Positions 29,531-64,000 of a stretch of DNA of 64,000 nt are shown piece by piece. The stretch covers positions 5,021 through 69,020 of the forward strand of contig CAZKLM010000002.1 in NCBI GenBank assembly GCA_964553755.1, read 5' to 3'. This DNA comes from an uncultured Acholeplasmataceae bacterium. Its GTDB lineage: Bacteria; Bacillota_I; Bacilli_A; Acholeplasmatales; Acholeplasmataceae. Made by a program: the position numbers and the translations under genes. Within the stretch, counting starts at the first letter, position 1. Each line of letters opens with the position of its first letter. The notes under the pieces were generated by a model. It made no database searches and was not told the origin of the DNA. It worked only from the letters and a program-made list of their open reading frames with translations.

Positions 29531-29546
29531 CATCAAAATGAGATGG

Positions 29547-29635: not shown

Positions 29636-30259
29636 ATGAAAAAAAACATGATTGTCTTGATGCTTGTTTTGTTGGCTTTATTATATGGATGCACGAGAGA
29701 TGAACGTCCATCCACACCCATCGAAACCCCGAATCCCTATGCGGTCTTTTTTGATACGTTAAACGAGATGGACCAGTACAGTTTGGATATTGAAGTCACT
29801 GTCAATCAAGAAACGTATCATTTTCTTTTCAAAAGATACCAGCACATCTCATCCAGTCAAGTTGGGGAAACCATCGATTACTTTGTTAAAGAGGAGCAAT
29901 TCTGTTATCTCTATCGACACTATGAGGATGGGTACCGAAAACACCCTCATGATTGCTCCCCTGATGAGGTCGCTTCGTTTTTGTTTTTTAGATTACTCGA
30001 CTGGACGATGTTTACAGAACTAAACGGTCGCTATTTTATGAATTTGCAATCGCTTCATGTCGTGGAATCCTTTTTCGTTAAAGAATTCCCCCATGCGAAA
30101 GTTAGCAATTTCGAGATCCTGTTTGGCCATCATCACATTGAATCCATCGTGTTTGATTTGACGCTTGGAAAAACGGTGTACCACCATGTCATGATGTTTT
30201 ATGGCATCCATGAGACCATCATCTTATTACCCGATATCCTTGAGGAGGTTTCATCATGA
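29636..30259 (+). CDS. Hypothetical lipoprotein
   Basis: MKK + hydrophobic stretch + LLYGC lipobox; RBS GAGGTG. Confidence 0.75.
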   Translation: MKKNMIVLMLVLLALLYGCTRDERPSTPIETPNPYAVFFDTLNEMDQYSLDIEVTVNQETYHFLFKRYQHISSSQVGETIDYFVKEEQFCYLYRHYEDGYRKHPHDCSPDEVASFLFFRLLDWTMFTELNGRYFMNLQSLHVVESFFVKEFPHAKVSNFEILFGHHHIESIVFDLTLGKTVYHHVMMFYGIHETIILLPDILEEVSS

Positions 30260-31821
30260 AAAAAATCCTTCTCATCCTTCTAATAGTCGGGTTATCTTTA
30301 TTAGGAAATTATCGCCAATTGGAAGCATCGCTATTAGTGGATGCAACAAGTGAAGTCACTGAATACATCGAAGGCGTAAGACACACAAAAATTGTTGGCG
30401 AAATTCGTTATTATAATCAGGATACTGAAGAAACCATCCGTACTAAACAAGTCATTAATTATTTAGGTGCACATGTTCAGTTGGCAGAAGAACTTCATGT
30501 TATTGTAGCGGATGCCTATTCCCCTTACGAATGGGGGATGGGAAACATGTATGCTCTTAAAGAAAACATTCACCAACGCTACGATCATTACCAAGTGATT
30601 GCCGGTGTCAATGGCGATTTTTATAATATGAACACGGGGCATCCGGTTGCGGGGTATATACGCAATTACGAAGTTCTTACCACGGGAGGCAATCGCCCTC
30701 TTGCAGGTTTTAAAGATAACGGTGAGGTTGTCTTCGGCATTCCCGAATGGGGAGGTTATGAACTTTTGGTGTTTGATGGGGATCAAGATTTGAAGCTCAG
30801 AATGGACATTGGTGCAATCAACAAAGAAGCACCAGCGGGACAGTGGTCTGTCTACTTTGATGATTACCCCCATGTGATTAGTCAAGCTACACCGAAAGTC
30901 GTTTTAGAGGCCATTGATCTCAAACGCGATGACTGGCAATCCCGGTATTTTGGAAAAGGGGTTCCTGTGCGTATCACACAGGATACGTTATCCGTAGAAA
31001 AAGGACAAATTATCTTGGTCAGTGATTGGGTATCCACTCCTCTTTTATTTGAAAATACAGATCATGTGGTCATCCAAAGAAAACCTCTCGGGGCTTTTGA
31101 AGATGTTAGGTTTGCGATTGGTGTTTGGGAAAAACTGGTTGAAAATGGTCGCCCATTAACCACATGGACAGAAGGGGCTATTCCCACGTCGCGTGCACCA
31201 CGGACAGCCATAGGTGTTACCGCAGGAGGATCCGTATTCTTTGTAACGGTTGATGGCCGACAGGCTCATCTTGGTATGGAAGGTGTGAATCATCGTGAAA
31301 TGGCAGCGATTATGTCACATTTTGGAGCAAGAACGGCGTATAACTTAGATGGTGGTGGTTCCACCACCGCATTGGTTAAAGATTTGGAGACCGATGCATA
31401 TCATGTGGTCAATCATCCTTCGGATGGGCAACTAAGAAACATCTCCAATGGCTTATTCATTGTAAAAGGCCACCATCAACGAAACCCAGATCAATTGCCG
31501 TTTCCAGATTTAAGACCAACTTTAGAGACGCCTAAACGCATTCATATCGACGATCAAGGGATGATCCGATTCTTGGAAGTTTCCAACAGCCAAGGGTATC
31601 AAATGGCTATTAACGGCGTGGTGACAACCCATCATGCTCCTGCATTCCCACTGCAACTGCCTCCAGGGGAATACGAAATAAGAATTAGAGCCATAGGCGA
31701 TAAATTGCTGTTTCGCTCATCGCATTATTCGGAACCTATTTGGGTTACGGTTCATCCAGATGAGATTGGACAGCTCTTTCGATTGTACAGAAATAGCCTC
31801 CGCAAGGAGACAGGAAATTAA
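30256..31821 (+). CDS. Secreted phosphodiester glycosidase (NAGPA/DUF2233 family) with C-terminal FN3-like domain
   Basis: Signal peptide; AGVNGDFY, RAPRTAIG, VTVDGR, AYNLDGGGST, VNHPSDG..RNISNG. Confidence 0.88.
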   Translation: MKKILLILLIVGLSLLGNYRQLEASLLVDATSEVTEYIEGVRHTKIVGEIRYYNQDTEETIRTKQVINYLGAHVQLAEELHVIVADAYSPYEWGMGNMYALKENIHQRYDHYQVIAGVNGDFYNMNTGHPVAGYIRNYEVLTTGGNRPLAGFKDNGEVVFGIPEWGGYELLVFDGDQDLKLRMDIGAINKEAPAGQWSVYFDDYPHVISQATPKVVLEAIDLKRDDWQSRYFGKGVPVRITQDTLSVEKGQIILVSDWVSTPLLFENTDHVVIQRKPLGAFEDVRFAIGVWEKLVENGRPLTTWTEGAIPTSRAPRTAIGVTAGGSVFFVTVDGRQAHLGMEGVNHREMAAIMSHFGARTAYNLDGGGSTTALVKDLETDAYHVVNHPSDGQLRNISNGLFIVKGHHQRNPDQLPFPDLRPTLETPKRIHIDDQGMIRFLEVSNSQGYQMAINGVVTTHHAPAFPLQLPPGEYEIRIRAIGDKLLFRSSHYSEPIWVTVHPDEIGQLFRLYRNSLRKETGN

Positions 31822-31840
31822 AAAAAAAAGGTAGGACACC

Positions 31841-32632
31841 ATGAACATTATTGTATGCATCAAGCAAGTCCCGGCATCTTCGGATGTCAATGTCGATCCG
31901 AAAACCGGCGTTTTAATCCGCGATGGGGATAACGTGAAAATGAATCCCTATGATCTTTATGCGTTAGAACGAGCATTCGATATAAAGAAAAACCAATCCA
32001 ATGCTGTCATTCATGCCGTCACCATGGGACCTCCAAGTGCCATCAGCGTTCTAAAAGAAGCGCTTTATATGGGAGCAGATAAAGCAACCTTGATTTCAGA
32101 TAAACGCTTGGCGGGTGCCGATGTGTATTCTACAGCTTACACACTTAGTCAGTTGATTCGTTATCTAGGAGACTATTCCATAATCCTTTGTGGCAAGCAA
32201 ACCACAGACGGGGATACAGCGCAAGTGGGTCCTGAAATCGCGGAGATGCTTGATATACCCCATGTGTGTTATGTCAAAGAAATCATCAAAATCGATGAAA
32301 AATCGATTATAGCAGTGGCTTCCTATGACCATTATGATGAAAAGGTATGGATTTCTCTTCCCTGTCTTTTAACCATTGACCATGGAAATCTTGTTCCTCG
32401 ATTGCCGTCTTTCCGAAGAAAACGCCTTAAAAAAGATGAGCCCATTGAACACGTATCACTTAAGAACTTAGAAGATCAAGATCCCATGCACTATGGATTA
32501 AATGGTTCTCCAACACAAGTCATTGAAATCTTTCCTCCCTCCAAAAACCGCGAGTCAACCCTCTTAGAGGGATCGGGTAAACAGCTAAGCGAAGCGCTGT
32601 TTGATGTTCTAAAACAGCACAAATTTTGGTGA
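31841..32632 (+). CDS. etfB: Electron transfer flavoprotein subunit beta
   Basis: IIVCIKQVP, MNPYD, TMGPP, GKQTTDGDTAQVGP, GLNGSPTQV. Confidence 0.95.
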   Translation: MNIIVCIKQVPASSDVNVDPKTGVLIRDGDNVKMNPYDLYALERAFDIKKNQSNAVIHAVTMGPPSAISVLKEALYMGADKATLISDKRLAGADVYSTAYTLSQLIRYLGDYSIILCGKQTTDGDTAQVGPEIAEMLDIPHVCYVKEIIKIDEKSIIAVASYDHYDEKVWISLPCLLTIDHGNLVPRLPSFRRKRLKKDEPIEHVSLKNLEDQDPMHYGLNGSPTQVIEIFPPSKNRESTLLEGSGKQLSEALFDVLKQHKFW

Positions 32633-32636
32633 TCCT

Positions 32637-33836
32637 ATGAGTTACATTAAAATCAATCAAGACAAAGTAAATCCCAAAATTGCGAAAGATTTGCTGCAAT
32701 TATGCCCCTTTAACGCGTTTGATTATCAAGATGCGTATCTTTCCATAAACGCCTCATGCAAACTGTGTAAACTGTGCATTAATCAAGGACCTGAAGGCGT
32801 TTGTGAATGGATAGAGTCCAAGCAAAAAACCATTGATAAATCGCTTTATAAAGGCATATGCGTTTATATAGAGCATCACAACAATGTGATCCATCCTGTT
32901 AGCTTTGAACTGATAGGAAAGGCCTTAGAACTCAAGCAAGTGACCCAAGAACCGGTCATGGCTATTGTCATTGGATGCGTTGAATCTAAATTGATTGACA
33001 CCTTGAGAACCTATGGATTAGATGCTATTTATATCTATCAGCACGAAGCCCTAAGGACCTTTGATGTGGAGCAGCATACCCGTGTCATGGAGATGTTTCA
33101 TCAAACATTTTTAAACAACATTTTCTTAATGGGAGGAACTGCCCTTGGACGAAGCTTTGCACCACGGGTTGCTGCGAGGTTACATACAGGGTTGACAGCG
33201 GACTGCACCAAACTTGAACTAACAAAAGAAGGCGATCTCATTCAGATTCGTCCAGCTTTTGGTGGCAATATCATGGCTAAAATTGCAACTCCTCATCATC
33301 GTCCACAAATGGCGACTATTCGGTATAAAATGTTCCAAACCGCGACTAAAACAAAAGCGTTGAGTCCAGTCATCTATCCTCACCTTTCTGACATTGAAAA
33401 GGAAAGTCGTGTTCAAATCCTTGACATCATTGAGCAACCTCCAGTCCATGATATCAGTGACGCCGAAATCATAATTGCCGTAGGCAGAGCCTTTAAAAAG
33501 CAAAAGGATTTGGAATTGATTGAACCCCTAAAGAACAAACTCAATGCAGAATTAGCCTGCACAAGACCATTGATTGAAAACGGTTGGTTTGATCCAAAAA
33601 GACAAATCGGTTTATCCGGAAGAACCGTAAAACCTAAATTGATTATTAATATTGGCATTAGTGGCGCAGTGCAATACATCGAAGGGATGAAGGATGCTGA
33701 ACTCATCATTTCCATCAATAAAGATCCCCATTGCCGATTATTCGATATCAGTCACTATGCGATTGTGGGAGATTTTTATGACATCATGCCAGATTTAAAT
33801 AAGCTTATTGATCAAATCAAGGAGGACATGCGATGA
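32637..33836 (+). CDS. etfA: Electron transfer flavoprotein subunit alpha with N-terminal Fe-S (ferredoxin-like) domain
   Basis: CPFNA...CKLCKLC N-terminus; TGLTADCT, RPAFGGNIMA, QIGLSGRTVKPK, GISGAVQ. Confidence 0.93.
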   Translation: MSYIKINQDKVNPKIAKDLLQLCPFNAFDYQDAYLSINASCKLCKLCINQGPEGVCEWIESKQKTIDKSLYKGICVYIEHHNNVIHPVSFELIGKALELKQVTQEPVMAIVIGCVESKLIDTLRTYGLDAIYIYQHEALRTFDVEQHTRVMEMFHQTFLNNIFLMGGTALGRSFAPRVAARLHTGLTADCTKLELTKEGDLIQIRPAFGGNIMAKIATPHHRPQMATIRYKMFQTATKTKALSPVIYPHLSDIEKESRVQILDIIEQPPVHDISDAEIIIAVGRAFKKQKDLELIEPLKNKLNAELACTRPLIENGWFDPKRQIGLSGRTVKPKLIINIGISGAVQYIEGMKDAELIISINKDPHCRLFDISHYAIVGDFYDIMPDLNKLIDQIKEDMR

Positions 33837-35233
33837 AATCGTATCAGTTTGACCCCAATCATTACCAAAAATTGCTCCAAATCGTGGGTCCAGATCACAT
33901 CGTTATCCATGATGATATCCCGATGGATTTGACACATGACGAGTTAAAAACCGTTTCTGCCAAACCGGATTATCATGTATCTGTCACGACAAAAGAACAG
34001 GTAGAAGCCATCATGGTGTTTGCCAATCAAAACCGTATTCCAGTCACCACAAGAGGCAGTGGCACAGGATTGGTTGGAGGTTGCGTTCCTATCCAAGGGG
34101 GCATCTTATTGGATTTATCCCAAATGAACCGGATACTTGAGTTGGATCCAATCAATTTGACGCTTCGTGTTGAACCAGGCGTCTTGCTGCTAGATATCTA
34201 TGAATACGTTGAAAAACAAGGTCTTTTTTATGCACCTGATCCAGGCGAAAAAACAGCGACCATAGCGGGCAACATTTCCACCAATGCCGGAGGCATGCGT
34301 GCGGTTAAATATGGGGTCACGCGTGATTGGGTCCGTGGGCTTGAAGTGGTGATTCCAACTGGGGAACGTCTTGTTTTAGGCGGGAAGGTGGTCAAAAATT
34401 CGACCGGTTTTGCACTAAAAGATTTAATAATTGGAAGCGAAGGCACACTTGGAGTCATCGTTGAAGCGACATTAAAACTGATGGCCAAACCTCAAAAAAC
34501 CATGAGTCTATTGGTGCCATTTGAAACCCACAAAAAAGCCATTGATGCTGCACCTTACCTTTTAACGCATCACGTAGTGCCATCTGCGATTGAGTTTTTC
34601 AATCAAGAGTCACTCACGTATGGGGAAGCATTTTTAGGAAAGAAAATCCCCAATCATCATCATGAAGCGTATCTCTTGCTCAGCTATGATGGAAACAGCG
34701 ACACCCATCTTATGGAAGATATTGAAAAAGCAAGCGCATTATGTTTAGATGAACTTGGTGCTTTAGATGTTTATTTGGTTGACACCGAAGAGCGGAAAAA
34801 ATCGGTTTGGACCGTGCGAGGTGCTTTTCTAGAAGCCATTAAATCGTCGACAACCGAGATGGACGAATGCGACGTGGTCTTGCCCAGATCAATGATTGCT
34901 TCCTATTTGGATTTTGTTCAAGCACTCAGTCAAGAAATCGGCATCCGAATCCCTTATTTTGGGCATATCGGTGATGGGAATTTACACCTTTATCTATGCA
35001 AAGATGCCCTTGATGATGAAACTTGGCAAGATAAAAAAACCATTGCTTTTGACCATATGTATCAAAAAGCAAATGCGTGTGGAGGTCTTGTTTCTGGAGA
35101 GCACGGCATTGGTTACGCGAAAAAAAGATACATGAAGGCGCAGCTTGGCGATAAGCAAATAGACATCATGCGTGCAATCAAGAAAGCGTTTGATCCAAAC
35201 GGGATTTTAAACCCTGAAAAGATTATCGATTAA
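33833..35233 (+). CDS. FAD-linked oxidase (GlcD/LctD-like), probable Etf-coupled (D-)lactate dehydrogenase
   Basis: RGSGTGLVGG, PDPGEKTATIAGN, GSEGTLG, FGHIGDGNLH, SGEHGIG; follows etfB-etfA as in Acetobacterium lctBCD. Confidence 0.8.
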   Translation: MKSYQFDPNHYQKLLQIVGPDHIVIHDDIPMDLTHDELKTVSAKPDYHVSVTTKEQVEAIMVFANQNRIPVTTRGSGTGLVGGCVPIQGGILLDLSQMNRILELDPINLTLRVEPGVLLLDIYEYVEKQGLFYAPDPGEKTATIAGNISTNAGGMRAVKYGVTRDWVRGLEVVIPTGERLVLGGKVVKNSTGFALKDLIIGSEGTLGVIVEATLKLMAKPQKTMSLLVPFETHKKAIDAAPYLLTHHVVPSAIEFFNQESLTYGEAFLGKKIPNHHHEAYLLLSYDGNSDTHLMEDIEKASALCLDELGALDVYLVDTEERKKSVWTVRGAFLEAIKSSTTEMDECDVVLPRSMIASYLDFVQALSQEIGIRIPYFGHIGDGNLHLYLCKDALDDETWQDKKTIAFDHMYQKANACGGLVSGEHGIGYAKKRYMKAQLGDKQIDIMRAIKKAFDPNGILNPEKIID

Positions 35234-35337
35234 TCGTTTTTTCATTCTTTCGATTGCTTTGCATGCAAAACCACATTTATTTGAAAAAAATGATATAATA
35301 TGAGTAACCCATATTCGACCATAAAGAGGTGACTCAT

Positions 35338-36183
35338 ATGAGTGTCATGTTGAACATGCTGAAGTACAAAGAAGAATTAAGTATGGCTGAGCGTGTTGTT
35401 TTGGATTATCTGATTGAAAACAAAGAATCCCTCAAAGATTTCAGTGTAGAAAAGATTGCTGAAGCGGCATACACATCCCCCGCTTCTGTGGTTCGAATGT
35501 GTAAAAAACTGGGTTATCGGGGGTTTAAAGATTTTAAGATTGACTTTATTTTAGCTAATGCGAAAGTAGAAATTCCTGAAAACAAAGAGTATGTCGATGT
35601 CATCTTAGCCAAAGATAAAAACTGCGGCCGTTCCGCAATTGAAAACAACATTAGAGTGCTTGAAGACACTTTAAAACTTTACAACCAAGAAACCCTTGAA
35701 AAAGCAGCAGAAGTCATCATGACGGCTCGAAAGATTCTCATTTTTGGAAAAGGATCATCCTATTTGGTCTGCAAAGATTTAGAAATGAAACTGAGACGGA
35801 TCAATAAGTTTTGTATCGCTCAAGGAGAATCCCATGAACAGCTCGTGGATGCTTCATTTTTGAATCAAAAAGACGTGATTATTTTCATCTCCAATTCTGG
35901 AAAAACCAAGGAAATCATCAGTGCTGCGTTAGTCGCTAAAGAAAATAAAGCCACGATTATCAGCATCACCAAACTTGGCAGTTCTATTTTGTCAGAACTT
36001 TCAGACATCGTACTCTACACGTCATCGATGGAAGGCGAATTTCGAAGTGCAGCCATGACCTCGCGAATTTCACAATTGGCGATTGTGGATGCATTGTTTG
36101 CATCCTGTGCCTATTTTGATATCGATCGCTCGGTTAGAACCTTAGAGATGACGTATCAAACCTTTAAAAAATACAAGCGATAA
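35338..36183 (+). CDS. RpiR/MurR family transcriptional regulator (HTH + SIS)
   Basis: SPASVVRMCKKLGYRGFKDFK, FGKGSS, ISNSGKT, SRISQL; extended -10 TGATATAAT at 35291-35299. Confidence 0.93.
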   Translation: MSVMLNMLKYKEELSMAERVVLDYLIENKESLKDFSVEKIAEAAYTSPASVVRMCKKLGYRGFKDFKIDFILANAKVEIPENKEYVDVILAKDKNCGRSAIENNIRVLEDTLKLYNQETLEKAAEVIMTARKILIFGKGSSYLVCKDLEMKLRRINKFCIAQGESHEQLVDASFLNQKDVIIFISNSGKTKEIISAALVAKENKATIISITKLGSSILSELSDIVLYTSSMEGEFRSAAMTSRISQLAIVDALFASCAYFDIDRSVRTLEMTYQTFKKYKR

Positions 36184-36209
36184 GGGATATGAGAATATCC
36201 TTTTTTTTT
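36182..36209 (+). terminator. Intrinsic terminator after rpiR
   Basis: AAGGGATAT-gaga-ATATCCTTT then T run. Confidence 0.75.
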
Positions 36210-36229
36210 GAAAAAATTGACCAAAAACT

Positions 36230-36266
36230 GACAAACGTTTGCATCTCATCATAGATGAATTATAAT
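36230..36266 (+). promoter_or_regulatory. anmK operon promoter with LacI/cre-like palindrome over the -35
   Basis: TTGCAT-N16-TATAAT; palindrome CAAACGTTTG at 36232-36241. Confidence 0.6.
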
Positions 36267-36284
36267 AAAAGTGTAGGTGACGAC

Positions 36285-37433
36285 ATGAAACGATTAGGCA
36301 TTGGAATCATGAGTGGAACCTCTTTGGATGGCATAGATGTTGCACTGGCCAGCATTGAAGGTTACCATGAAGGAACCCGCGTGACGCTCCATCACTTTAA
36401 CACATATCCTCTATCCGATTCACTCATTAATCGCATCAGACAGGCAATGGAACCAAAAACCAGTTCGGTGGATCTCCTTTGCAGTCTGAATTTTGAGTTG
36501 GGCTATGCCTTTGCTGAAGCTGTTCAAAAGCTCTGTCAAGAGGCTCGTTTGCCGCTTTCACACCTTGATTTTGTGGCCTCACACGGCCAAACGATGTATC
36601 ACATGCCCAATGAACCCCTTCCATGCCATCGCTCCACCCTTCAATTAGGGGAAGGTTCTGTCATCAAAGAAATGCTTCAAACAACCGTTATCAGCAATTT
36701 TAGAACAGCTGACATGGCCGTTGGTGGACAAGGAGCACCCCTGGTTCCATTTGCAGATTATGTTTTGTTTAAATCGGATACCAAGACCCGTGTGGTGCAC
36801 AACATTGGGGGCATATCCAACCTAACCTGGTTAAAAAAAGGTGGCCTACCTGAAGACGTGATGGCGTTTGATACCGGTCCAGGCAACATGATGATCAACG
36901 ATGCCATTTTTAGATTGTTGGGCTTGCCCTATGACGATCAAGGCATACACGCATCATTAGGGACACCGATTAAACCCATGCTTGAAGCGCTTCTTTCCCA
37001 TCCTTTTTTGTCTCAGACACCACCGAAATCAACGGGAAGAGAAACGTTTGGCAGTCCGTGGACGCATAAACTGCTGAAACAATATTCCGATTACGCAATC
37101 AATGATCTTTTAGCAACCTTCACGGCTTACACCGCAATTTCAATAGCGGATGCCTATGAACGCTACATTTTCCCCTTAGGACCTCTTGATGAAATCATCT
37201 TTTCAGGCGGAGGCATTCATAATACGTTTTTGATGAATTCCATTAAAGCACGATTGCATCCTATTCCCATCCGAACCATGGAAGATTATGGGATGAACAG
37301 CGACGCTAAAGAAGCCTTAGCCTTTCTCATTTTAGGCCATCACACCTTAGGACATGTTACCAATCATCTTCCTAGCACAACGGGAGCGTCTAGGCCCGTT
37401 ATCCTTGGACAAATCCACCCTGTGTTGAAATGA
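36285..37433 (+). CDS. anmK: Anhydro-N-acetylmuramic acid kinase
   Basis: GIMSGTSLDGID, SHGQT, GGQGAPLVP, NIGGISN, FDTGPGN, PPKSTGRE, GGG, KEALAF. Confidence 0.95.
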   Translation: MKRLGIGIMSGTSLDGIDVALASIEGYHEGTRVTLHHFNTYPLSDSLINRIRQAMEPKTSSVDLLCSLNFELGYAFAEAVQKLCQEARLPLSHLDFVASHGQTMYHMPNEPLPCHRSTLQLGEGSVIKEMLQTTVISNFRTADMAVGGQGAPLVPFADYVLFKSDTKTRVVHNIGGISNLTWLKKGGLPEDVMAFDTGPGNMMINDAIFRLLGLPYDDQGIHASLGTPIKPMLEALLSHPFLSQTPPKSTGRETFGSPWTHKLLKQYSDYAINDLLATFTAYTAISIADAYERYIFPLGPLDEIIFSGGGIHNTFLMNSIKARLHPIPIRTMEDYGMNSDAKEALAFLILGHHTLGHVTNHLPSTTGASRPVILGQIHPVLK

Positions 37434-37443
37434 GGATTAACCC

Positions 37444-49083: not shown

Positions 49084-49145
49084 TTGAAAAAAATATCCAA
49101 AAGTTGGAAAAAAAACCGGTTTAAAAGACAATTGACAAGGTCAAG

Positions 49146-49174
49146 TTGACAGCGCTTTCAATTTAAATTAGAAT
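49146..49174 (+). promoter_or_regulatory. Strong sigmaA promoter with cre/LacI-type operator over the -35
   Basis: TTGACA-N17-TAGAAT; TGACAGCGCTTTCA at 49147-49160 fits TGWNANCGNTNWCA at every position. Confidence 0.8.
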
Positions 49175-49209
49175 ACAGGTAAAGATTAACAAAAAATATA
49201 GGAGGAAAT

Positions 49210-51621: not shown

Positions 51622-51644
51622 TTTAATTACGAATTAAGTCATTT

Positions 51645-51672
51645 AAGTACCCGATTCATCGGGTACTTTTTT
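51645..51672 (+). terminator. Intrinsic terminator
   Basis: AAGTACCCGA-ttca-TCGGGTACTT then T run. Confidence 0.85.
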
Positions 51673-53444: not shown

Positions 53445-53456
53445 TTAAGCCGATAA

Positions 53457-53476
53457 CCCCCTCATTTTTGAGGGGG
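53457..53476 (+). other. Stem-loop without U-tract after SBP gene (probable mRNA-stabilising element)
   Basis: CCCCCTCA-tttt-TGAGGGGG followed by ACCG, not a T run. Confidence 0.6.
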
Positions 53477-53499
53477 ACCGTTGTTCAAAAGGAGTCAAT

Positions 53500-56415: not shown

Positions 56416-56425
56416 GAGACGATGC

Positions 56426-57361
56426 ATGGACGTTCAAATTAAACCAACGACACAAAAGCACGTCAAATTTCATCTGCTTGTTAAAGAACTCAAGCGGTTT
56501 AAGCATCACTACGTGTTGATGGCTCCGTATGTGCTTTTGTTCATGACGTTCACGATTATTCCCGTGTTCATGTCGCTTGGCATCAGTTTCACGTATTTCA
56601 ATTTACTCGAACCCCCTCGATTCATCGGATTGGACAATTACATCAAACTATTGCTTGATGATGATATTTTTATCATTTCATTAAAAAATACATTAATCTT
56701 AGCGGTCGTTACAGGTCCGGTTAGCTATCTATTGGCCTTTGTGTTCGCTTGGTTAATCAATGAGTTAAAACCCAAACTTAGGGCGTTTATGACGTTAATT
56801 TTTTACGCTCCATCCATTTCGGGAAATGCCTTTTTAATTTGGTTATTGATTTTCTCAGGCGATGTGCATGGGTACGCGAACTCCATCTTGATTCGTTTTG
56901 GCTTTTTGGATAATCCGATTTTATGGTTAAAAGATCCGAATTACATCATGATGGTTATCATCATTGTCCAACTCTGGCTCTCGTTAGGTGTCAGTTTTCT
57001 AGCGTTCATCGCTGGTCTTCAAAGCATTGATAAAACGCTTTTTGAAGCGGGAGCCATTGATGGGATTAAAAACAGATGGCAAGAGTTGTGGTTTATTACC
57101 CTCCCTTCCATGAAACCTCAGTTAATGTTTGGTGCCGTCATGCAAATTACCACCAGCTTGGCGATTGCAGAAGTCTCAATGCAGTTAGTAGGCTTTCCAT
57201 CCGTTCAGTATGCTGGGCATACCATCGTGACACATTTGATTGACTTTGGTTCGGTGCGCTTTGATTTGGGGTATGCCTCCGCTATTGCGACCCTTTTGTT
57301 CATCATCATGATGTCGACCAATCTCTTGGTCCGCAACATCTTGCGAAAGGTGGGGGACTAA
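56426..57361 (+). CDS. Carbohydrate ABC transporter permease (MalF/UgpA-type)
   Basis: FIGLDNY, FIAGLQSIDKTLFEAGAIDG, ITLPSMKP, GYASAIA. Confidence 0.93.
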   Translation: MDVQIKPTTQKHVKFHLLVKELKRFKHHYVLMAPYVLLFMTFTIIPVFMSLGISFTYFNLLEPPRFIGLDNYIKLLLDDDIFIISLKNTLILAVVTGPVSYLLAFVFAWLINELKPKLRAFMTLIFYAPSISGNAFLIWLLIFSGDVHGYANSILIRFGFLDNPILWLKDPNYIMMVIIIVQLWLSLGVSFLAFIAGLQSIDKTLFEAGAIDGIKNRWQELWFITLPSMKPQLMFGAVMQITTSLAIAEVSMQLVGFPSVQYAGHTIVTHLIDFGSVRFDLGYASAIATLLFIIMMSTNLLVRNILRKVGD

Positions 57362-57362
57362 C

Positions 57363-58235
57363 ATGAAAAAACGTAAATGGTTCCAAATTAAAAAAATTCG
57401 CAAACTCAACCGGTCCATAAGCGGCGATATCGCTTTATTTGCGCTTTTGTTACTGTTTGGTTTCTTTAGTGCTTTTCCACTTATTATGACCACATCGAAT
57501 GCGTTTAAGTCGCTGGATGAACTGTTTTTATTCCCTCCACGGCTTTTCCCAAGAAACATTACATTTGATAATTTTAGAGATCTATCTGAACTCATGAGCA
57601 ACTCATGGATTCCTTTTTCAAGGTATTTCTTCAATACCATCTTAATCACCACATTAGGGACTGCGGGACACGTGTTGATTGCTTCCATGTGTGCTTATCC
57701 ACTGGCGAAATATAAATTTCCCGGACGCGGGCTCATTTTTACATTGGTGGTTTATTCGCTGATGTTTGCGCCACAAGTAACAGCAACACCCAACTACATC
57801 ATTATTTCCCAAATTGGCATCATTGATACGCCTTTTGCGATTATTTTACCAGCGATTGCATCCAGTTTGGGTCTTTATCTAATGAAACAGTTCATGCAGC
57901 AAATACCGGATGAACTTATTGAGTCCGCTAAAATTGATGGAGCCAGTGAGTACCGTATCTTTTTCCAAATCGTGATGCCGCTGGTTAAACCTGCTTGGCT
58001 GACATTGATTATTTTGTTATTTCAACGCTTATGGACCACCGATGGTGGATCCTTCATTTTCAGTGAGGAACTGAAACCAGTTTCCTATGCGTTAAGACAA
58101 ATCGCCCAAGGGACCATTGAGAGAGCAGGCACAATTGCGGCTGTCTCCTTTGTCATGATGCTTGTTCCAGTGACATTCTTCATTATTTCACAATCAAAGA
58201 TTGTGGAAACATTCAGTCACTCGGGCATGAAGTAG
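57363..58235 (+). CDS. Carbohydrate ABC transporter permease (MalG/UgpE-type)
   Basis: AYPLAK..FPG, IPDELIESAKIDGA, IVMPLVKP. Confidence 0.93.
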   Translation: MKKRKWFQIKKIRKLNRSISGDIALFALLLLFGFFSAFPLIMTTSNAFKSLDELFLFPPRLFPRNITFDNFRDLSELMSNSWIPFSRYFFNTILITTLGTAGHVLIASMCAYPLAKYKFPGRGLIFTLVVYSLMFAPQVTATPNYIIISQIGIIDTPFAIILPAIASSLGLYLMKQFMQQIPDELIESAKIDGASEYRIFFQIVMPLVKPAWLTLIILLFQRLWTTDGGSFIFSEELKPVSYALRQIAQGTIERAGTIAAVSFVMMLVPVTFFIISQSKIVETFSHSGMK

Positions 58236-58244
58236 GAGGCAAGT

Positions 58245-59702
58245 ATGATCAAAACAGTTTTGATGACCTTCTTGCTCATCACCTTACCCATTTCGGTTTC
58301 ATCGACACGCTACAATTACTCTTATCATGGACGCGTCATTCATTCCGCTCCAGGCATGACTTATGCCACGTCATTTAACGCACAAACATTAGGGATTGCC
58401 TTGTCATCTCCTGAGGATTTCGAAATCTATGACCAGCATATCTATTTGGTGGACTCGGTAGAAAATCATTTGGTTGTGATAAACAAAGATTTCCAAGTGG
58501 TAACAAAAATGACCACGTTTATGACCTCAGACGCCTTTTATGATGAAAGTGGCCTTTTAGAAATCACCTTAAGATCACCCTTTGGAATCGATGTTAAATC
58601 CAGCGGAATTTATATTGCAGATACCGGTAATAACCGCATTGTTAAACTGAACCATGATTTTCATGTGGTTGCCTTATTTAGTGAAATGGCGGATAAAACA
58701 TTCGATGAACTCTCCTTTGAACCCATCAAGATTACGGTTGATCCGACAGAACGGATGTATGTGGTTGCTAGAAACGTTTATGAAGGAATCGTCGAAGTGA
58801 ATCACGATGGCGCTTTTAATCGGTTTACCGGTGTCAATCCCATTCGCATGACGCCCATCGAGATTTTTAGAAGAAGCCTCATGACAGAAGCTCAGTTGGC
58901 TCAACTTAAACTCTATTTGCCAACCGAATACACTAATGTGTCGATCAATGACCGCAATTTTATTTATGCCACATCAAAACCTTCGACCAATAACGCTGAA
59001 AACATGATCCAGCTCATCAACCCTAAAGGCGTTGATGTCATCAAAAGAAACGGCTATCATCCGCCCATGGGGGATGTGCATTTCACCGATGGATCGAACA
59101 ATTATGTCGTAACTGGACCCAGTTTGTTGGTTGATATCGCGAGTACAGATTATGGTATTTATACCGTTTTGGATCAGAAACGTTCTCGACTGTTCACTTA
59201 CGATAGCGAAGGAAACTTGCTTTACATCAACGGAGATGAAGGGGCACAAAGCGACCGATTTGCCGATGGTGTTGCGATTGGCTATTTGGATGACGATCTC
59301 TTGCTTTTGGATCGACGTTCTCGCACCATGATTGTGTATCGTTTGACCGAATTCGGAGAATCGGTTAATTTGGCGATTCAGTATCATGCCATGGGGGAGT
59401 TTGATCAAGCAGCGGACATATGGAAAGAAGTCATTCGATTAAACACCAACTATGAGATGGCGTATAACGGGATTGGAAAATACCTTTTGCGCGAGGGTCT
59501 CTTTAGAGAAGCCATGCATTATTTCCGATTAGGCCATGATCGTTATTATTATTCCAAAGCGTTTCGAGGGTATCGAAATGAAATTATCAAGGCTAATTTT
59601 GGATTCATTGTCGGTTTCATTGCTCTGGGTTCTCTTGGAATTTTTGGACTTAAGATTTATCGAACCTATCGAAAAGGAGGAACCATACTTTATGAAGACT
59701 AA
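58245..59702 (+). CDS. NHL-repeat beta-propeller protein with TPR-like region and C-terminal TM
   Basis: SPEDF...YLVDS, SPFGI...YIADTGNNRIV, P.KITVD...MYVV; W..V...N.NY..AY.GIGK. Confidence 0.8.
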   Translation: MIKTVLMTFLLITLPISVSSTRYNYSYHGRVIHSAPGMTYATSFNAQTLGIALSSPEDFEIYDQHIYLVDSVENHLVVINKDFQVVTKMTTFMTSDAFYDESGLLEITLRSPFGIDVKSSGIYIADTGNNRIVKLNHDFHVVALFSEMADKTFDELSFEPIKITVDPTERMYVVARNVYEGIVEVNHDGAFNRFTGVNPIRMTPIEIFRRSLMTEAQLAQLKLYLPTEYTNVSINDRNFIYATSKPSTNNAENMIQLINPKGVDVIKRNGYHPPMGDVHFTDGSNNYVVTGPSLLVDIASTDYGIYTVLDQKRSRLFTYDSEGNLLYINGDEGAQSDRFADGVAIGYLDDDLLLLDRRSRTMIVYRLTEFGESVNLAIQYHAMGEFDQAADIWKEVIRLNTNYEMAYNGIGKYLLREGLFREAMHYFRLGHDRYYYSKAFRGYRNEIIKANFGFIVGFIALGSLGIFGLKIYRTYRKGGTILYED

Positions 59703-60333
59703 GTTAAAAAGTGCATGGTTTCATCTGGTTTCGTTTCCGAGATACATCTTGTTTCATCCGTTTAATGGCTACGAGGAACTGAAGCGATACAAAAAAGGAA
59801 AAATCAGTGTTGCGCTTGTGTTTATTGTTCTTTATGCATTTTTTAGAATATTCAAGTTTCAAAATGAAAACATGCTCATCAACCCAAACAATCCACTTGA
59901 CTTAAACAGTTTAACAGAGTTTTTCTCAGTGGTCTTGCTCGTGTTTTTGTTTACTGTGGGCAATTGGTCGGTTACGACCCTTATGGAGGGCAAAGGCAGT
60001 TTTAAGGAAATCGTGATGGTCACGGGATACGCGTTGTTTCCCTTGGTTATCCTAGGGTTTCCTGCCGTTATTCTCTCCAATTTTTTGACACTCGAAGAAA
60101 TGGCTCTTTATCAGCTATTGATTGGCTTAGCCTATTTTCTAGCGGGTTGGATGCTCTTTATGGGCATTTTAAACATCCATCAGTACGGTCTTTTTAAAAC
60201 CATCTTGGCGTTTATCGCCACCTTGGTTTCCATGAGCGTCATGATGTTTGTTGGCTTATTGTTTTTTGATCTCATTCAACAGTTCATCGCGTTTATCGCT
60301 TCGATATACGAAGAATTGTCTTTGAGATATTAG
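59692..60333 (+). CDS. Yip1-family membrane protein
   Basis: HPFNGY.ELK, NWSVTTLMEGKG.FKEI, YALFP, IHQY; ATG at 59692 after AAAGGAGG. Confidence 0.78.
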   Translation: MKTKLKSAWFHLVSFPRYILFHPFNGYEELKRYKKGKISVALVFIVLYAFFRIFKFQNENMLINPNNPLDLNSLTEFFSVVLLVFLFTVGNWSVTTLMEGKGSFKEIVMVTGYALFPLVILGFPAVILSNFLTLEEMALYQLLIGLAYFLAGWMLFMGILNIHQYGLFKTILAFIATLVSMSVMMFVGLLFFDLIQQFIAFIASIYEELSLRY

Positions 60334-60345
60334 GAGGGACAAGCC

Positions 60346-62907
60346 ATGTTAAAGAAAATGATCCTCATCACCTTAATCGCAATGGCTTTGATTGCCTATC
60401 TCTTTTTGTTTCAGTTAAAACAAAGCATGCGTTTAGAGTCACACATTCATGCGTTTTCGAGAGAGAACTTCGTCGATTCCATGACCCTTTCTGATCGAAA
60501 TCGATTGGTGGCTCAAAATCAAAAATTTGAGCTTTATCTTGATGAAGTGACATCGTATATTAAGGTCGTTGACCGTAGAAACGGTCAAGTCTGGCTTTCC
60601 AATCCGGTAACGCCAGACCCATGGACATTAGACTCTACCAAGTTATTGACCCCAACGGCCGAAGAAAAACAAAAGGCAACGTTGGAGCTTTCTTATTTTA
60701 ATCAAACAGGGACGTTGGTCACCATCAATAATTATAAGATGAGCATCCATCATCCTGAAAGCATCTTGAATGCCGCAGGCATGCGCACGTTTTCCGTTAA
60801 ATACATCGATTCGGGTGTTCAAGTTTTGTATCAAATCAAAGATTTGGAAGTGGATCATCTTTATTTTCCAAAATTCCTTCCAAAAGATGTTTTTGAAGAA
60901 ATGCCCGAGTTTCAATTGTTATCAACGATAGCCTACACCGGTTACGATGCTGAACGCGAACTTTATGAAATCGTTCGTTATGAAAGCATGTCTCGTTTGG
61001 TTAAATCTCGGCTGTATCAAGTGTTCTATGAACGTTTGAATTATACGCGGGATCAAGCCATCGAAGAAAACATGCTTTATGGTTACATGGAGACGTTTGA
61101 AAAGGCCGAATTTGAGATTGCGATCCAAGTGATGCTTCATGACGAAGGCATTGAAGCACGCATTCTTCATGATTCCATTAAGGAACCGGATGACATAAAA
61201 ATTGGGAATATTTCGCTTTACCCTTTGTTTGGTACAGCGGTATCCACCCTTAATGGAAACCCTACTTCCGGGTATTTAGTCATCCCGGATGGAAGCGGCG
61301 CAGTCATGACCTTTAACAATGGCAAACAGGTGCATAATCCGTATCGTAAGCGGGTCTATGGAACGGATATGGCATTATTGCCTTATAAAATGAGAGAGAC
61401 CCAAGAAAACATTCAAGTTCCGCTCTTTGGTATGGTTAAAGAGCAAAGCGGGTTTGCAGCGATCATCACTGAAGGAGATGCCATGGCATTTATCCATGCA
61501 GATGTATCGGAGCGCATTGATTCTTACAATAAAATCCACGCCTCCTTTAATCTTAGAGAAACGGAATCCGTGACCCTTGGAAGTGGGTTTAATCGATATG
61601 GAATCAACCTTTGGACCAAACAACCGGTTCGAACCGATTTCGCTGTTCTCTACATCTTTTTAAATGCACCGGATAACAGTTATGTTGGCATCGCGAATGC
61701 GTATCGAAATCATCTCATCAAGCAAACGGGATTCTCCCAAAAAGATCACACAGAACGGGTCATCGTGACGGCTGAGTTGATTGGGGCATACGATCAAAAA
61801 GCCTTTTTCTTAGGTATTCCATATTACAATCAGCGTGCTTTAACCACGTTTGATCAGGCACAAGAAATGGTCACACAACTCGCTGATTTAGGCGTTTATG
61901 ACCTCCAATTGGTGTATCTCGGATTATTCAATGGTGGGCTAACCTCAGGGCTTCAAAACCGTTTAACCGTCGAGCGTGTTTTAGGAGGTAAACGGGATTT
62001 TGATCGCTTCCAAGAAGCGATGCTCGCGTCAAACATCGCTCTTTATAGCCAAGTCAATGTCACCACCACAACAGGTTATCCACGAGCATTGGATCGTTAC
62101 CGATACACGTCCACTCGGTTAAATGGCGCATTGTCACGTGACTTTTCGTACCATTATCCCTCGCGTTTGCCGTATGCTGAAACCCCTTTTGAACAGCGAG
62201 CAGATGACTATGTCATTAATCCAATGTATTATCAAGCCATCTTTGAGGGACTTTCCAAGTCTTATCGCTATGACGCTATCGCGTTTACGCATCTTGGATC
62301 ACGCCTTGCAGGACATTACACCAAAAACGAATCCATTTATCGTCAAGATGCGCTTCGCATTCAAGAAAATCTCTTAAAACAGTCGACTTATCAAACCCTG
62401 TTAGCCCAACCTTTCGCATACGCTTGGCCTTATCTGTCATCGATCACCGATCTTCCTGCGGAAACCACCCTCTATTCGATTGTGGATTATTCTATTCCTC
62501 TTTTGCAACTGATTTTATCCGGTTGGGTGGATTACTCGATGGCTTCTATGAACATGGCCAGTGAAAGAAGCATGACCTATAATTTTTTAAAAGTTTTAGA
62601 AACGGGATCCAATCTCAAATACACCCTGTCTTATCAAGACTCTAAAGCGTTAATCGAGACGGATTACAATTATTACATGTCCACACATTTTGTCAATTGG
62701 ACGGAGATTATTCAGCATCAAGTGACTATACTCAATCAGTTAGGCCTCCATAAAGGCCGACTTGTTGACCATAAGCGGTTGGCTAACAACGTTTACCAAG
62801 TGACTTATTCACATGGTCTTCAATTGATCATCAACTATAACCTCACCCAAACAGTGGTTCAAAATCGGACCATTCCAGCGATGGGTTATGTGGTTTTGGA
62901 GGGTTAA
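60346..62907 (+). CDS. DUF5696-like extracellular protein (possible glycoside hydrolase fold)
   Basis: N-terminal TM; W.SNP, PLFG, GYLVIPDGSGA, VYG.D, PLFG, IITEGDA, YVGIA..YR, IPLLQLIL.G; usual member of the NHL-Yip1 ABC cassette. Confidence 0.72.
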   Translation: MLKKMILITLIAMALIAYLFLFQLKQSMRLESHIHAFSRENFVDSMTLSDRNRLVAQNQKFELYLDEVTSYIKVVDRRNGQVWLSNPVTPDPWTLDSTKLLTPTAEEKQKATLELSYFNQTGTLVTINNYKMSIHHPESILNAAGMRTFSVKYIDSGVQVLYQIKDLEVDHLYFPKFLPKDVFEEMPEFQLLSTIAYTGYDAERELYEIVRYESMSRLVKSRLYQVFYERLNYTRDQAIEENMLYGYMETFEKAEFEIAIQVMLHDEGIEARILHDSIKEPDDIKIGNISLYPLFGTAVSTLNGNPTSGYLVIPDGSGAVMTFNNGKQVHNPYRKRVYGTDMALLPYKMRETQENIQVPLFGMVKEQSGFAAIITEGDAMAFIHADVSERIDSYNKIHASFNLRETESVTLGSGFNRYGINLWTKQPVRTDFAVLYIFLNAPDNSYVGIANAYRNHLIKQTGFSQKDHTERVIVTAELIGAYDQKAFFLGIPYYNQRALTTFDQAQEMVTQLADLGVYDLQLVYLGLFNGGLTSGLQNRLTVERVLGGKRDFDRFQEAMLASNIALYSQVNVTTTTGYPRALDRYRYTSTRLNGALSRDFSYHYPSRLPYAETPFEQRADDYVINPMYYQAIFEGLSKSYRYDAIAFTHLGSRLAGHYTKNESIYRQDALRIQENLLKQSTYQTLLAQPFAYAWPYLSSITDLPAETTLYSIVDYSIPLLQLILSGWVDYSMASMNMASERSMTYNFLKVLETGSNLKYTLSYQDSKALIETDYNYYMSTHFVNWTEIIQHQVTILNQLGLHKGRLVDHKRLANNVYQVTYSHGLQLIINYNLTQTVVQNRTIPAMGYVVLEG

Positions 62908-62910
62908 ACG

Positions 62911-63834
62911 ATGACAACCATGATAAGCAAGTTTAAAAAAATAGAATGGACTTACAAACAGCAAAAATTGATTTGGGCAATTATCTTTTTGATGCCTTGG
63001 GTCATGGGATTTGTTTTGCTCTTTGCGGTTCCACTCATTGAATCGCTTCGATACAGTTTTTATCAGTTAACCCCACGAGTCGGTGAGATCACCAAAGAAT
63101 TCGTCGGGTTTGAAAATTACCGGTATGCATGGGATACCCATGTCACGTCAAATTCGAGTTTCAAAGTCGAACTGATCAATACCACGCTGGATGTTGTCTA
63201 CAATTTACCGGTTTTATTGATTTTTAGTTTATTGATTGCTGTGTTGTTGAACATGCAATTTAAAGGACGAGCCATCGTACGGGCCATCTTCTTTATCCCT
63301 GTTATCTTAAACTCTTCCGCTGTCGCGATTGCCTTAGGGGGAAGTGGCGAACTGATTGCTGCCATTTTGGCGGAACAAGGCATTGGCAAAATCTTTGATT
63401 TGGAGTTTTACTTAATGCAGACCGGGTTATCGGTTGTTTTGATTCAGTTCATTGTGGGTCTCATTGGTCGTATTTATGCCATCTTGGCTTTGGCTGGAGT
63501 ACCTATTCTCCTCTTTTTAGCCAGCATCCAATCGGTGCCTAAACACCTTTATGAAGCCGCTAAAATTGAAGGGGCTACGGGTTATGAAATGTTTTGGCTG
63601 ATTACCCTTCCGAATGTCTCACCGCATATCATTACGGTGACCATTTACGCGTTGGTGGATACCTTTTTAACGTCTCCCGTTAGCGCAATCATTTCAACTG
63701 AGCTTAATAAACAACAGTGGGGGCTTAGTTCAGCCATGGCTTGGATTTATGTGGGAACCATCCTCATTTTATTGATTGCTTTAGGCGGGGTTGCTAAAAT
63801 CTTTAAGATAGGAGAACATCATTATGAAAACTAA
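62911..63834 (+). CDS. Carbohydrate ABC transporter permease
   Basis: PWVMGF, FVGFENY, RAIFFIPVI, LYEAAKIEGATGYE.FW.IT.P. Confidence 0.92.
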   Translation: MTTMISKFKKIEWTYKQQKLIWAIIFLMPWVMGFVLLFAVPLIESLRYSFYQLTPRVGEITKEFVGFENYRYAWDTHVTSNSSFKVELINTTLDVVYNLPVLLIFSLLIAVLLNMQFKGRAIVRAIFFIPVILNSSAVAIALGGSGELIAAILAEQGIGKIFDLEFYLMQTGLSVVLIQFIVGLIGRIYAILALAGVPILLFLASIQSVPKHLYEAAKIEGATGYEMFWLITLPNVSPHIITVTIYALVDTFLTSPVSAIISTELNKQQWGLSSAMAWIYVGTILILLIALGGVAKIFKIGEHHYEN

Positions 63835-64000
63835 AGGATGGGCAACTCTTAAACGAATAAAAGATGACATCAGCCGGTTCCTTCATGACAGAAGAAGAAT
63901 TAACCGGTTAAACCGCCGTTTTCGCGATGTGTCATCTTCGATTCTTCGGTACATTTTCTTGCTTGGTCTCTGTTTTGTGATTTTATTTCCGACCATTCAG
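63824..64000 (+). CDS. Probable fourth ABC permease (5' part only)
   Basis: ATG at 63824 after GGAG; MKTKGW...ILRYIFLLGLCFVILFPTIQ, open to the window end. Confidence 0.6.
   Translation, partial: MKTKGWATLKRIKDDISRFLHDRRRINRLNRRFRDVSSSILRYIFLLGLCFVILFPTIQ

Follow-up and report, generated by a model that had tools for sequence, protein, structure and literature searches.

Polysaccharide utilisation loci of Gram-positive bacteria bring together a regulator, surface glycosidases, binding proteins, an ABC importer and cytoplasmic exo-enzymes. The locus analysed here resembles them in its clustered glycosidases, transporter and regulator, but its predicted substrate is murein, and it adds amidases and lactate oxidation. 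In Bacillus subtilis, NagZ, AmiE and NamZ together break peptidoglycan down to monomers by sequential exo-digestion, the same chemistry as predicted here, and the murQ-murR-murP-amiE-nagZ-namZ operon shares with our locus MurQ, NagZ, NamZ, an AmiE-like hydrolase and an RpiR regulator (PMC8054146, excerpt). B. subtilis, however, is walled, secretes AmiE, NagZ and NamZ, and takes up MurNAc via the PTS MurP (same excerpt). In our host genome (G000), by contrast, the tested wall-synthesis genes are absent, the exo-enzymes have no signal segment and ABC import is predicted; the locus also adds surface endo-enzymes, AnmK, kinases and LctBCD. Excerpts on Tannerella forsythia describe use of other bacteria's peptidoglycan, as is predicted for G000, and likewise NamZ and a MurNAc kinase (10.1101/2021.12.02.470905; PMC7670621, PMC5790795), but this organism is a walled MurNAc auxotroph that depends on the sugar for making its own wall, with uptake by AmpG/MurT instead of an ABC cassette.

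The GHL10 enzymes described, in excerpts, are Clostridioides difficile Cwp19, which yields anhydro and reducing ends (PMC6016235), Escherichia coli DigH, which cleaves peptide-free glycan (PMC12288456), and a starch-active member (PMC9967864). The HFDDYFYP motif is common to Cwp19 (PDB 5oq2) and the locus GHL10. Cwp19 and DigH are single-domain proteins that act on their own wall, whereas G000 has three GHL10 domains, two in tandem on an anchor and one predicted to be cytoplasmic. A search of the open literature found no description of this locus, nor of a cell without a wall that combines surface-tethered endo-enzymes, import by ABC and exo-enzymes in the cytoplasm; the terms "muram" and "peptidoglycan" were not found in the A. 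oculi genome paper. What is already known is the MurQ/AmiE/NagZ/NamZ chemistry of B. subtilis, and what has no precedent found is the surface-tethered arrangement in a wall-less cell.

Organization of the locus

The window is the whole 64-kb stretch of DNA that was analysed. The features of the locus are as follows (positions in the window, or in G000 contig C2 beyond it).

13237..15114, - strand: nagA and nagB, detached from the locus in G000 (TIGR cut-offs exceeded)
29545..29571, + strand: terminator-like hairpin directly before the locus (consensus scan only)
29636..30259, + strand: small putative lipoprotein of no family (no Pfam/NCBIfam match)
30256..31821, + strand: secreted NAGPA-family phosphodiester glycosidase (PF09992, E 5e-36)
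31841..35233, + strand: EtfB, EtfA and LctD, LctBCD-type D-lactate dehydrogenase (Pfam; LctD against 7qh2_C, E 1.4e-163)
35329..36183, + strand: RpiR/MurR-family regulator, SIS+HTH_6 (Pfam; under NCBIfam MurR cut-offs)
36209..36266, + strand: TGAAAA box and sigma70-like promoter of anmK (matrix rank 3 in G000)
36255..37433, + strand: AnmK, anhydro-MurNAc kinase (Pfam; over three NCBIfam AnmK cut-offs)
37444..38424, + strand: BadF-family kinase, MurK-like (Pfam; best structure 8zo3, a MurNAc/GlcNAc kinase, E 1e-24)
38421..39755, + strand: GH4 6-phospho-beta-glycosidase (Pfam; 5c3m/1s6y, E about 1e-148)
39724..40953, + strand: single GHL10, no signal segment, predicted cytoplasmic (Cwp19 5oq2, E 4.5e-73)
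40896..44795, + strand: double GHL10 carrying a signal segment, an Ig-like linker and a membrane anchor at the C-terminus (Pfam, NCBIfam, hydropathy)
44792..45844, + strand: serine beta-lactamase-fold hydrolase, AmiE/YfeW-like by context (Pfam)
45841..49083, + strand: lipoprotein with Big_2 repeats, beta-helix and C-terminal XlyA-like Amidase_2 (Pfam; 3hmb, E 7.7e-22)
49085..49174, + strand: TGAAAA box (49085; rank 1 in G000) and cre site TGACAGCGCTTTCA (49147)
49210..51621, + strand: 803-aa membrane-anchored surface protein, Ig stalks and N-domain (predicted model)
51645..51668, + strand: terminator-like hairpin
51834..56415, + strand: two family-1 solute-binding proteins, a 536-aa lipoprotein and one of 971 aa (Pfam)
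56426..63834, + strand: permease, permease, NHL/TPR protein, Yip1, DUF5696, permease (Pfam)
63824..64000, + strand: start of a fourth permease (full gene G000:C2 68844-69842)
G000:C2 69858-70499: DUF624, beyond the window
G000:C2 70483-71634: NamZ (PF07075, E 2e-82, and PF20732)
G000:C2 71564-73192: NagZ (PRK05337 over cut-off)
G000:C2 73155-74117: second BadF kinase
G000:C2 74101-75039: MurQ (TIGR00274, 391 bits, cut-off 302)

A sequence-only reading of the window had described more than 34 kb of co-oriented genes, and the 22 ORFs of 200 aa or more in 29636-63834 do all lie on the + strand. The part of the locus that it saw stands, but it missed the end. The conserved gene string is about 40 kb long and extends 6 kb beyond the window to G000:C2:75039, after the fourth permease, DUF624, NamZ, NagZ, the second BadF kinase and MurQ. 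The pathway given in that reading left out the first five genes (the unknown lipoprotein, the NAGPA-family protein, EtfB, EtfA and LctD), of which LctD-Etf likely belongs to the pathway. The arrangement suggests several transcription units rather than a single operon; promoter and terminator counts are not clearly higher than in shuffled sequence.

Judged from sequence, the locus would likely enable a bacterium without the tested wall-synthesis genes to digest foreign peptidoglycan on its outer face, take up the pieces and live by fermenting them. The gene content and order, the conserved motifs of each family and the lack of the synthesis genes are observed; the steps described below are inferred.

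Surface and secreted proteins

Outside the cell, the Amidase_2 lipoprotein would remove stem peptides and the anchored double GHL10 would cleave the glycan, a pairing that fits the action of DigH on peptide-free strands. The surface location proposed earlier for both proteins agrees with hydropathy: the double GHL10 has hydrophobic segments at its N- and C-termini, and the amidase a lipobox-like N-terminus, for which the N-termini of 15 relatives were also considered. The DDYFY motif is present in all three GHL10 domains (14/14 genomes). Likewise, the Amidase_2 His-His-Cys and Glu, aligned to 3hmb, are kept in 14/14 aligned copies; we take these to be the zinc ligands and the catalytic residue, respectively.

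The 803-aa protein is predicted to be a non-catalytic binding protein that may hold the substrate. Its N-domain (pLDDT 96) gave no Foldseek match at E 0.001, and the best structure match, 5h3k (VIA Z 5.5, rmsd 2.8, 97 aligned), neither places the domain nor shows a new fold. The whole model was dropped as a fold guide, having returned Ig-repeat matches only, and the ESM Atlas gave Ig leads only, all <0.9. The NAGPA protein, with structure matches to 3ohg, 6ozd and 5h3k, may cut GlcNAc-1-phosphate linkages between wall polymers and MurNAc, and may release phosphodiester-linked polymers. Its gene lies inside the retrieved stretch in 12/13 relatives, the 13th being retrieved only from GHL10 onward, and weak homologues of the small lipoprotein are found next to it in several relatives.

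Cwp19-like and XlyA-like autolysin domains facing outward on Ig stalks, in a wall-less cell immune to such autolysins, would also suit an attack on the living. It is very unlikely that free-living wall-less Acholeplasmatales and Izemoplasmatales are specialist wall eaters that turned an ancestral recycling module outward once their own wall was lost and lyse living walled neighbours on contact with tethered autolysins harmless to themselves, and likewise very unlikely that the surface enzymes prey on or lyse living cells that they touch, rather than acting on dead walls alone. As had been read from the window, none of its 22 locus proteins has a LysM, SH3 or SLH match in Pfam, which argues against contact attack, since a LysM/SH3 wall-binding domain is not found. 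Lysozyme, glucosaminidase, NlpC/P60 and SLT motifs were also not found, in motif scans of low sensitivity, and the cre site suggests ordinary carbon-source control.

Uptake, intracellular enzymes and control

In the foreign-peptidoglycan reading, oligomers would be imported via the ABC cassette, which has no ATPase of its own and would be driven by the MalK/MsmX ATPase encoded at G000:C10:27299. The cassette had been called dedicated, a description that we withdraw: its type is generic, because DUF5696 is commoner than NamZ (52/299 against 27/300 genomes) and a second G000 copy sits among GH16/CBM4 genes. The NHL/TPR matches are mostly under the Pfam cut-off, and the DUF5696 protein has atlas matches to GH129/GH101 at 0.89-0.90, which rest on language-model features and serve as a lead only. 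No PTS domain turned up in a scan of 22+8 proteins from the locus and its flanks.

Inside, GHL10, NagZ, NamZ and the AmiE-like enzyme would release GlcNAc, MurNAc and anhydro-MurNAc; AnmK and the two BadF kinases would phosphorylate these sugars, and GH4 would cleave the phosphorylated disaccharide. MurQ would then form GlcNAc-6-P and D-lactate, and NagA/NagB would supply glycolysis. We infer the specificities of the transporter, the AmiE-like protein and GH4. A Cwp19-like GHL10 giving both anhydro and reducing ends fits the presence of AnmK plus a MurK-like kinase. The RpiR, AnmK, BadF kinase, GH4 and GHL10 domains are all over Pfam cut-offs, and the family motifs of the MurNAc enzymes are retained across 13-14 aligned genomes. 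GH4 motifs are intact only in genomes with the BadF kinase, which travels with intact GH4. For NagZ, NamZ and the AmiE-like protein, 14 copies each were scanned, and all lack a hydrophobic N-terminus (hydropathy scan, not SignalP). The last carries SxxK, YxD and HTG in 14/14 copies; its best curated model, PRK03642 (PBP4B), is below cut-off, and it has no PDB match at 1e-20 and generic serine hydrolases at 1e-6. A stem-peptide enolase-superfamily epimerase was not found in G000. The nagA/nagB pair is where it had been reported, upstream of the locus, and nagB lies at most three genes after murQ in 10/13 relatives.

The finding of namZ, nagZ, a kinase and murQ past the window makes a stronger case for a MurNAc-containing substrate. 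Chito-oligomers would also suit NagZ, NagA/B, a GH4 belonging to the 6-phospho-beta-glucosidase group and a cassette of generic type, and GHL10 is not limited to walls, as its starch-active member illustrates; nevertheless, that chitin or another GlcNAc glycan is the main substrate, with the MurNAc genes ancillary, is highly improbable, since only MurNAc accounts for the presence of AnmK, NamZ, MurQ, Amidase_2 and a linked D-lactate dehydrogenase, and GH18 is over cut-off on no locus protein.

The likely role of EtfBA-LctD is to oxidise the D-lactate set free by MurQ. The LctD match 7qh2 is Acetobacterium woodii LctBCD; an adjacent EtfB-EtfA-LctD trio is common to both, but that of G000 has no neighbouring lactate permease or racemase and is linked to murQ-type loci. 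LctD is directly upstream of rpiR in 8/12 relatives with upstream DNA retrieved, and is located after murQ in G539.

The RpiR regulator (62-89% identity across relatives) and a CcpA-like protein would likely activate the locus when the cell has wall sugars but no glucose. The cre site at 49147 overlaps the -35 hexamer, and the cre pattern is found in the promoters of 15/15 genomes. A TGAAAA matrix trained on relatives, with G000 held out, places the two locus boxes at ranks 1 and 3; 7/8 other top-10 sites in G000 fall within ORFs, so no wider regulon is seen. A promoter palindrome count was discarded as uninformative, as it returned mainly poly-T/A dyads. This catabolic setting bears on whether soluble wall fragments are salvaged as amino sugars for the cell's own surface glycans, not energy. 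GlmS (window 17132) and a GlmM motif in the genome would allow it, and T. forsythia salvages MurNAc for building (in the excerpts cited above), but the linkage of nagB to murQ in most relatives, the LctD-Etf linkage and the conserved catabolite-repression site leave it very little credence.

Host genome and distribution of the locus

G000 comprises 1.57 Mb at 99.44% completeness and uses genetic code 11; a code 4 reading was dropped in view of clean gene packing under code 11. Its nearest named relatives, placed via nearest named homologues, are Acholeplasmataceae and Izemoplasmatales; the assembly yielded no 16S gene for taxonomy. Whole-genome profile searches found no PBP/transpeptidase, transglycosylase, FtsW/RodA, MraY, MurA or Mur ligase, the one MurA match being AroA and both Mur-ligase matches FolC. 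The six synthesis families tested are all missing, and a full peptidoglycan synthesis pathway, which that reading had set against itself, is lacking. Together with the small genome and code 11, this fits the wall-less Acholeplasmatales profile. The foreign target proposed from the window is supported by these absences and by NamZ, NagZ and MurQ just past its edge.

Gene order is retained in 13/13 pre-selected relatives of the same order and in three genomes from other families of the class, related genomes that do not count as independent. Local gene order is also found in the best 20 loci, of which 17 bear titles such as Acholeplasmataceae, Izemoplasmatales or Tenericutes. G023 has no amidase, and G064 and G078 no GH4. 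Within the order, NamZ occurs in 41/201 genomes and class A PBP in 48/201; both occur in a single genome, without MurA and FtsW, so that 40/41 NamZ genomes have no class A PBP. Judged by NamZ, the locus is represented in roughly one in three of the genomes sampled from two families (f1 29/100, f4 11/19); in a second order, it is represented in 15/93.

Four walled genomes of the same class (G494, G539, G501 and G462, with class A PBP, a MurA-like gene and FtsW/RodA) carry NamZ, AnmK and MurQ in a rearranged core; G494 additionally holds the same ABC cassette and a GHL10. They rule out a restriction to wall-less cells and suggest that the module is likely older than wall loss, the locus core being likely an ancestral module retained thereafter. 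Self-wall recycling of the ordinary kind, which is favoured by the role of the core enzymes in B. subtilis recycling and the rearranged core of walled relatives, can be practically dismissed, and is largely refuted for G000, by the six absent synthesis families and the lack of class A PBP in nearly all NamZ genomes of the order.

In a labelling study, 13C from dead E. coli was found in Acholeplasma within 2 h, before any other group was labelled, with no mechanism shown; Hanajima et al. speculated on nucleic-acid precursors, and "peptidoglycan" is absent from the main text (PMC4628116, excerpt). It also counts against the proposal that other phyla dominated when purified peptidoglycan was used for enrichment, the main text, as excerpted, naming no Tenericutes or Mollicutes (PMC7511781). 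The locus is a candidate mechanism for the 13C uptake by Acholeplasma. Because the 803-aa signature surface protein occurs in the cultured A. laidlawii, A. oculi, A. hippikon and Mariniplasma anaerobium, a bench test is possible now. If the proposal is true, one DUF5696-type ABC cassette would have a substrate and an uncharacterised surface domain a function, and free-living Acholeplasma relatives would have a part, open to testing, in the recycling of dead bacteria.

Gene content and extent of the locus

Every one of the 22 ORFs of 200 aa or more between 29636 and 63834 (code 11) lies on the + strand of the window, which corresponds to G000:C2:5021-69020 (G000, source genome; C2, its contig), so the co-oriented gene run described in the sequence-only reading is borne out. 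Pfam and NCBIfam searches also recovered its enzyme and transport list, with RpiR, AnmK, BadF kinase, GH4, single GHL10, double GHL10, a beta-lactamase-fold hydrolase and a Big_2/beta-helix/Amidase_2 protein, and a transport part consisting of two solute-binding proteins, permeases, and NHL, Yip1 and DUF5696 genes. Past the window end, the locus runs 6 kb more (permease, DUF624, NamZ, NagZ, second BadF kinase and MurQ), and measures 34.7 kb from rpiR to murQ, or 40.4 kb counted from 29636. The nagA and nagB genes lie upstream, as had been claimed. Other features of the window are listed with them.

4784-6757, LtaS-like sulfatase-fold membrane protein, below cut-off
13237-15114, nagA and nagB
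22504-24375, 623-aa protein with no Pfam/NCBIfam match
27298-28722, 474-aa ROK-family protein; in 8/13 relatives it neighbours the locus, either upstream or following nagB
53450-53490, G+C-rich hairpin between both solute-binding protein genes, seen by eye in 15 genomes, which may tune the ratio of transcripts

Conservation, distribution and walled carriers

The best 20 of 80 loci matching the single GHL10 (51–59% identity) share the gene neighbourhood of G000 up to the limits of their contigs. Seventeen are titled Acholeplasmataceae, Acholeplasma, Mariniplasma, Izemoplasmatales, Izemoplasma, Xianfuyuplasma, Tenericutes or Mollicutes, and the remaining three Bacillota, Firmicutes and Falkowbacteria. 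The other 60 (33–39% identity, nearly all titled as Bacteroidota groups) do not share this neighbourhood, the one exception having anmK nearby. The synteny comparison proposed in the sequence-only reading was run on 13 relatives, with 40–60 kb each, picked for strong GHL10 matches. The order GHL10, double GHL10, AmiE-like, ABC cassette, DUF624, NamZ, NagZ, kinase and MurQ is kept in all 13, and also in G305, G448 and G454 from other families of the class (the G454 stretch lacks murQ); rpiR-anmK precedes GHL10 in the 12 of 12 relatives with upstream DNA. The Amidase_2 gene is absent in G023 and present in two copies in G011, and G064 and G078 lack GH4 and have the 803-aa surface protein gene relocated downstream. 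Motifs of GHL10, Amidase_2, AmiE-like, AnmK, NamZ, NagZ and MurQ are kept in 13–14 aligned copies. The catalytic motifs of GH4 are intact in 5/5 genomes where the neighbouring BadF kinase is retained (window 37444-39755) and lost in 9/9 genomes without it, where the gene is still full length (405–443 aa); the motif-less protein is possibly a pseudo-enzyme with a new role.

Within the order of G000 (201 genomes; families f1–f5), GHL10 is over cut-off in 44 genomes and NamZ in 41 (f1 29/100, f4 11/19, f2 0/78, f3 0/2, f5 0/1, plus G000), and a class A PBP transglycosylase in 48 (f1 1/100, f4 0/19, f2 44/78, f3 2/2, f5 1/1). The two overlap only in G035, which lacks MurA and FtsW; its lone class A PBP (G035:C64:1065-1583) is either an orphan gene or bin contamination. 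In the order to which G201 belongs (its record is titled Izemoplasmatales), NamZ is over cut-off in 15/93 genomes. All of these counts come from related genomes and are not independent.

Restriction of the core module to wall-less cells is contradicted by 4 of 23 further NamZ-bearing genomes, a hand-picked sample, that have a class A PBP, a full-length MurA-like gene (over cut-off in one of the four) and FtsW/RodA, and whose core, in rearranged form, comprises NamZ, AnmK and MurQ. Double GHL10 and rpiR were not found in the stretches fetched from these four; G494 additionally carries NagZ, the ABC cassette, a GHL10, three NAGPA genes, GH20 and MupG. In the rearranged type of G494, G539, G501 and G548, namZ is followed by a MupG-like gene (confirmed by Pfam in G494) and murQ by an alpha/beta hydrolase; G494 also has a GNAT protein, GH20 and the three NAGPA genes. 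An unrooted FastTree tree of NamZ, NagZ, MurQ and AnmK (24 genomes, 6 gene copies missing) splits the rearranged type (families f22 and f28) from the conserved-order type with a support of 1.0, and families are intermixed within the latter. An ancestral core module, retained after wall loss and later transferred, would fit these gene data.

Transport, surface protein and regulation

The ABC cassette claimed as dedicated is present, but its type is generic. DUF5696 occurs in 52/299 genomes of a phylum sample (two not scored) versus 27/300 for NamZ (one not scored), and a second cassette of G000 sits amid GH16 and CBM4 genes, which together indicate a generic chassis; specificity of the locus cassette for muro-oligomers is argued from its position. 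The locus cassette has no ATPase, and a MalK-type ATPase is encoded at G000:C10:27299. The stretch with the second DUF5696-type cassette (G000:C1:50912-82013; L140, L141) also contains two GH16 genes, CBM4/Ig surface lipoproteins, LacI regulators and a 1013-aa protein that matched no Pfam family, and is likely a beta-glucan locus.

Every organism-named homologue of the 803-aa protein among the 120 matches listed of 135 belongs to Acholeplasmataceae, Acholeplasmatales, Izemoplasmatales or Tenericutes, including A. laidlawii, A. oculi, A. hippikon and M. anaerobium. Its N-domain has a confident predicted fold with no clear structural match; the best VIA match (5h3k, Z 5.5, rmsd 2.8, 97 aligned) is to a stretch of a NAGPA-family protein that lies just before the part matching the catalytic motif; the gene at 30256 belongs to this family too. 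As a guess, the 803-aa protein might bind substrate.

Scanning with the cre consensus places a site across the -35 hexamer upstream of the 803-aa gene in 15/15 genomes, at 49147 in G000; for each of nine other genes, at most one of the upstream regions has the pattern. G000 has 26 cre matches overall, a CcpA-like gene below cut-off and an HPrK motif. A TGAAAA matrix built without G000, from 50 upstream regions in relatives, ranks 49085 (before the 803-aa gene) first and 36209 (before anmK) third among 65 matches above 11 bits in G000. Given an AT-rich motif, orthologous training regions and three training sites that coincide with translation starts, these ranks represent a footprint rather than proof of RpiR binding, and both are candidate RpiR sites. 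The accessible part of the E. coli MurR paper (PMC9177960) yielded no sequence for comparison.

Host genome and predicted pathway

G000 comprises 1,566,782 bases (99.44% complete, 0.04% contamination), with no 16S assembled. The wall-less host considered in the sequence-only reading agrees with a genome-wide search that found no transpeptidase, transglycosylase, FtsW/RodA or MraY, with controls positive in 10–12 of 14 reference genomes. Two Mur_ligase_M matches proved to be FolC, and a weak MurA match AroA. An alanine racemase motif occurs at G000:C1:170568-171665, and the enzyme, assigned by motif, could serve D-Ala from stem peptides.

The single GHL10 matches C. difficile Cwp19 (5oq2, E 4.5e-73), the amidase domain XlyA, the first BadF kinase a MurNAc/GlcNAc kinase, and GH4 6-phospho-beta-glucosidases. 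NamZ, NagZ, AmiE-like and the single GHL10 lack a hydrophobic N-terminus, hydrophobic segments sit at both ends of double GHL10 and of the 803-aa protein, and the Amidase_2 protein has a lipoprotein-like N-terminus. MurQ enzymes yield D-lactate. LctD, which matches the ferredoxin-linked lactate dehydrogenase 7qh2, lies directly before rpiR in 8/12 relatives and after murQ in the rearranged G539, a second link to the locus. According to the available parts of the sources, Cwp19 is a lytic transglycosylase whose products carry reducing as well as anhydro ends (PMC6016235), and E. coli DigH cleaves glycan that has no peptides attached (PMC12288456). In B. subtilis, monomers and peptides are freed by the joint action of NagZ, AmiE and NamZ, and MurQ splits the lactyl ether (PMC8054146). 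We infer from these data the activities of all locus enzymes and the direction of flux.

No published description of the locus was found in the literature searched, whose scope left out most subscription papers and all supplements. As far as the consulted portions of these sources go, Field et al. treat wall loss in Acholeplasmatales/Izemoplasmatales-type orders, with no 'recycling', 'murQ', 'amidase' or 'anmK' in the main text (PMC10868615); Hanajima et al. report Acholeplasma labelled from dead E. coli and speculate on nucleic-acid precursors (PMC4628116); other phyla dominate enrichments on peptidoglycan (PMC7511781); and a Black Sea preprint portrays Mycoplasmatota as DNA degraders.

The enzymes are known, and their arrangement and host were not found described in that literature; the locus is real, conserved and coherent. 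Since G000 has no wall of its own to recycle, the substrate must be external. The proposal that the target is foreign peptidoglycan rather than the cell's own wall is strengthened by the lack of the wall-synthesis genes searched for and by the NamZ, NagZ and MurQ genes past the window, and the locus likely catabolises foreign peptidoglycan.
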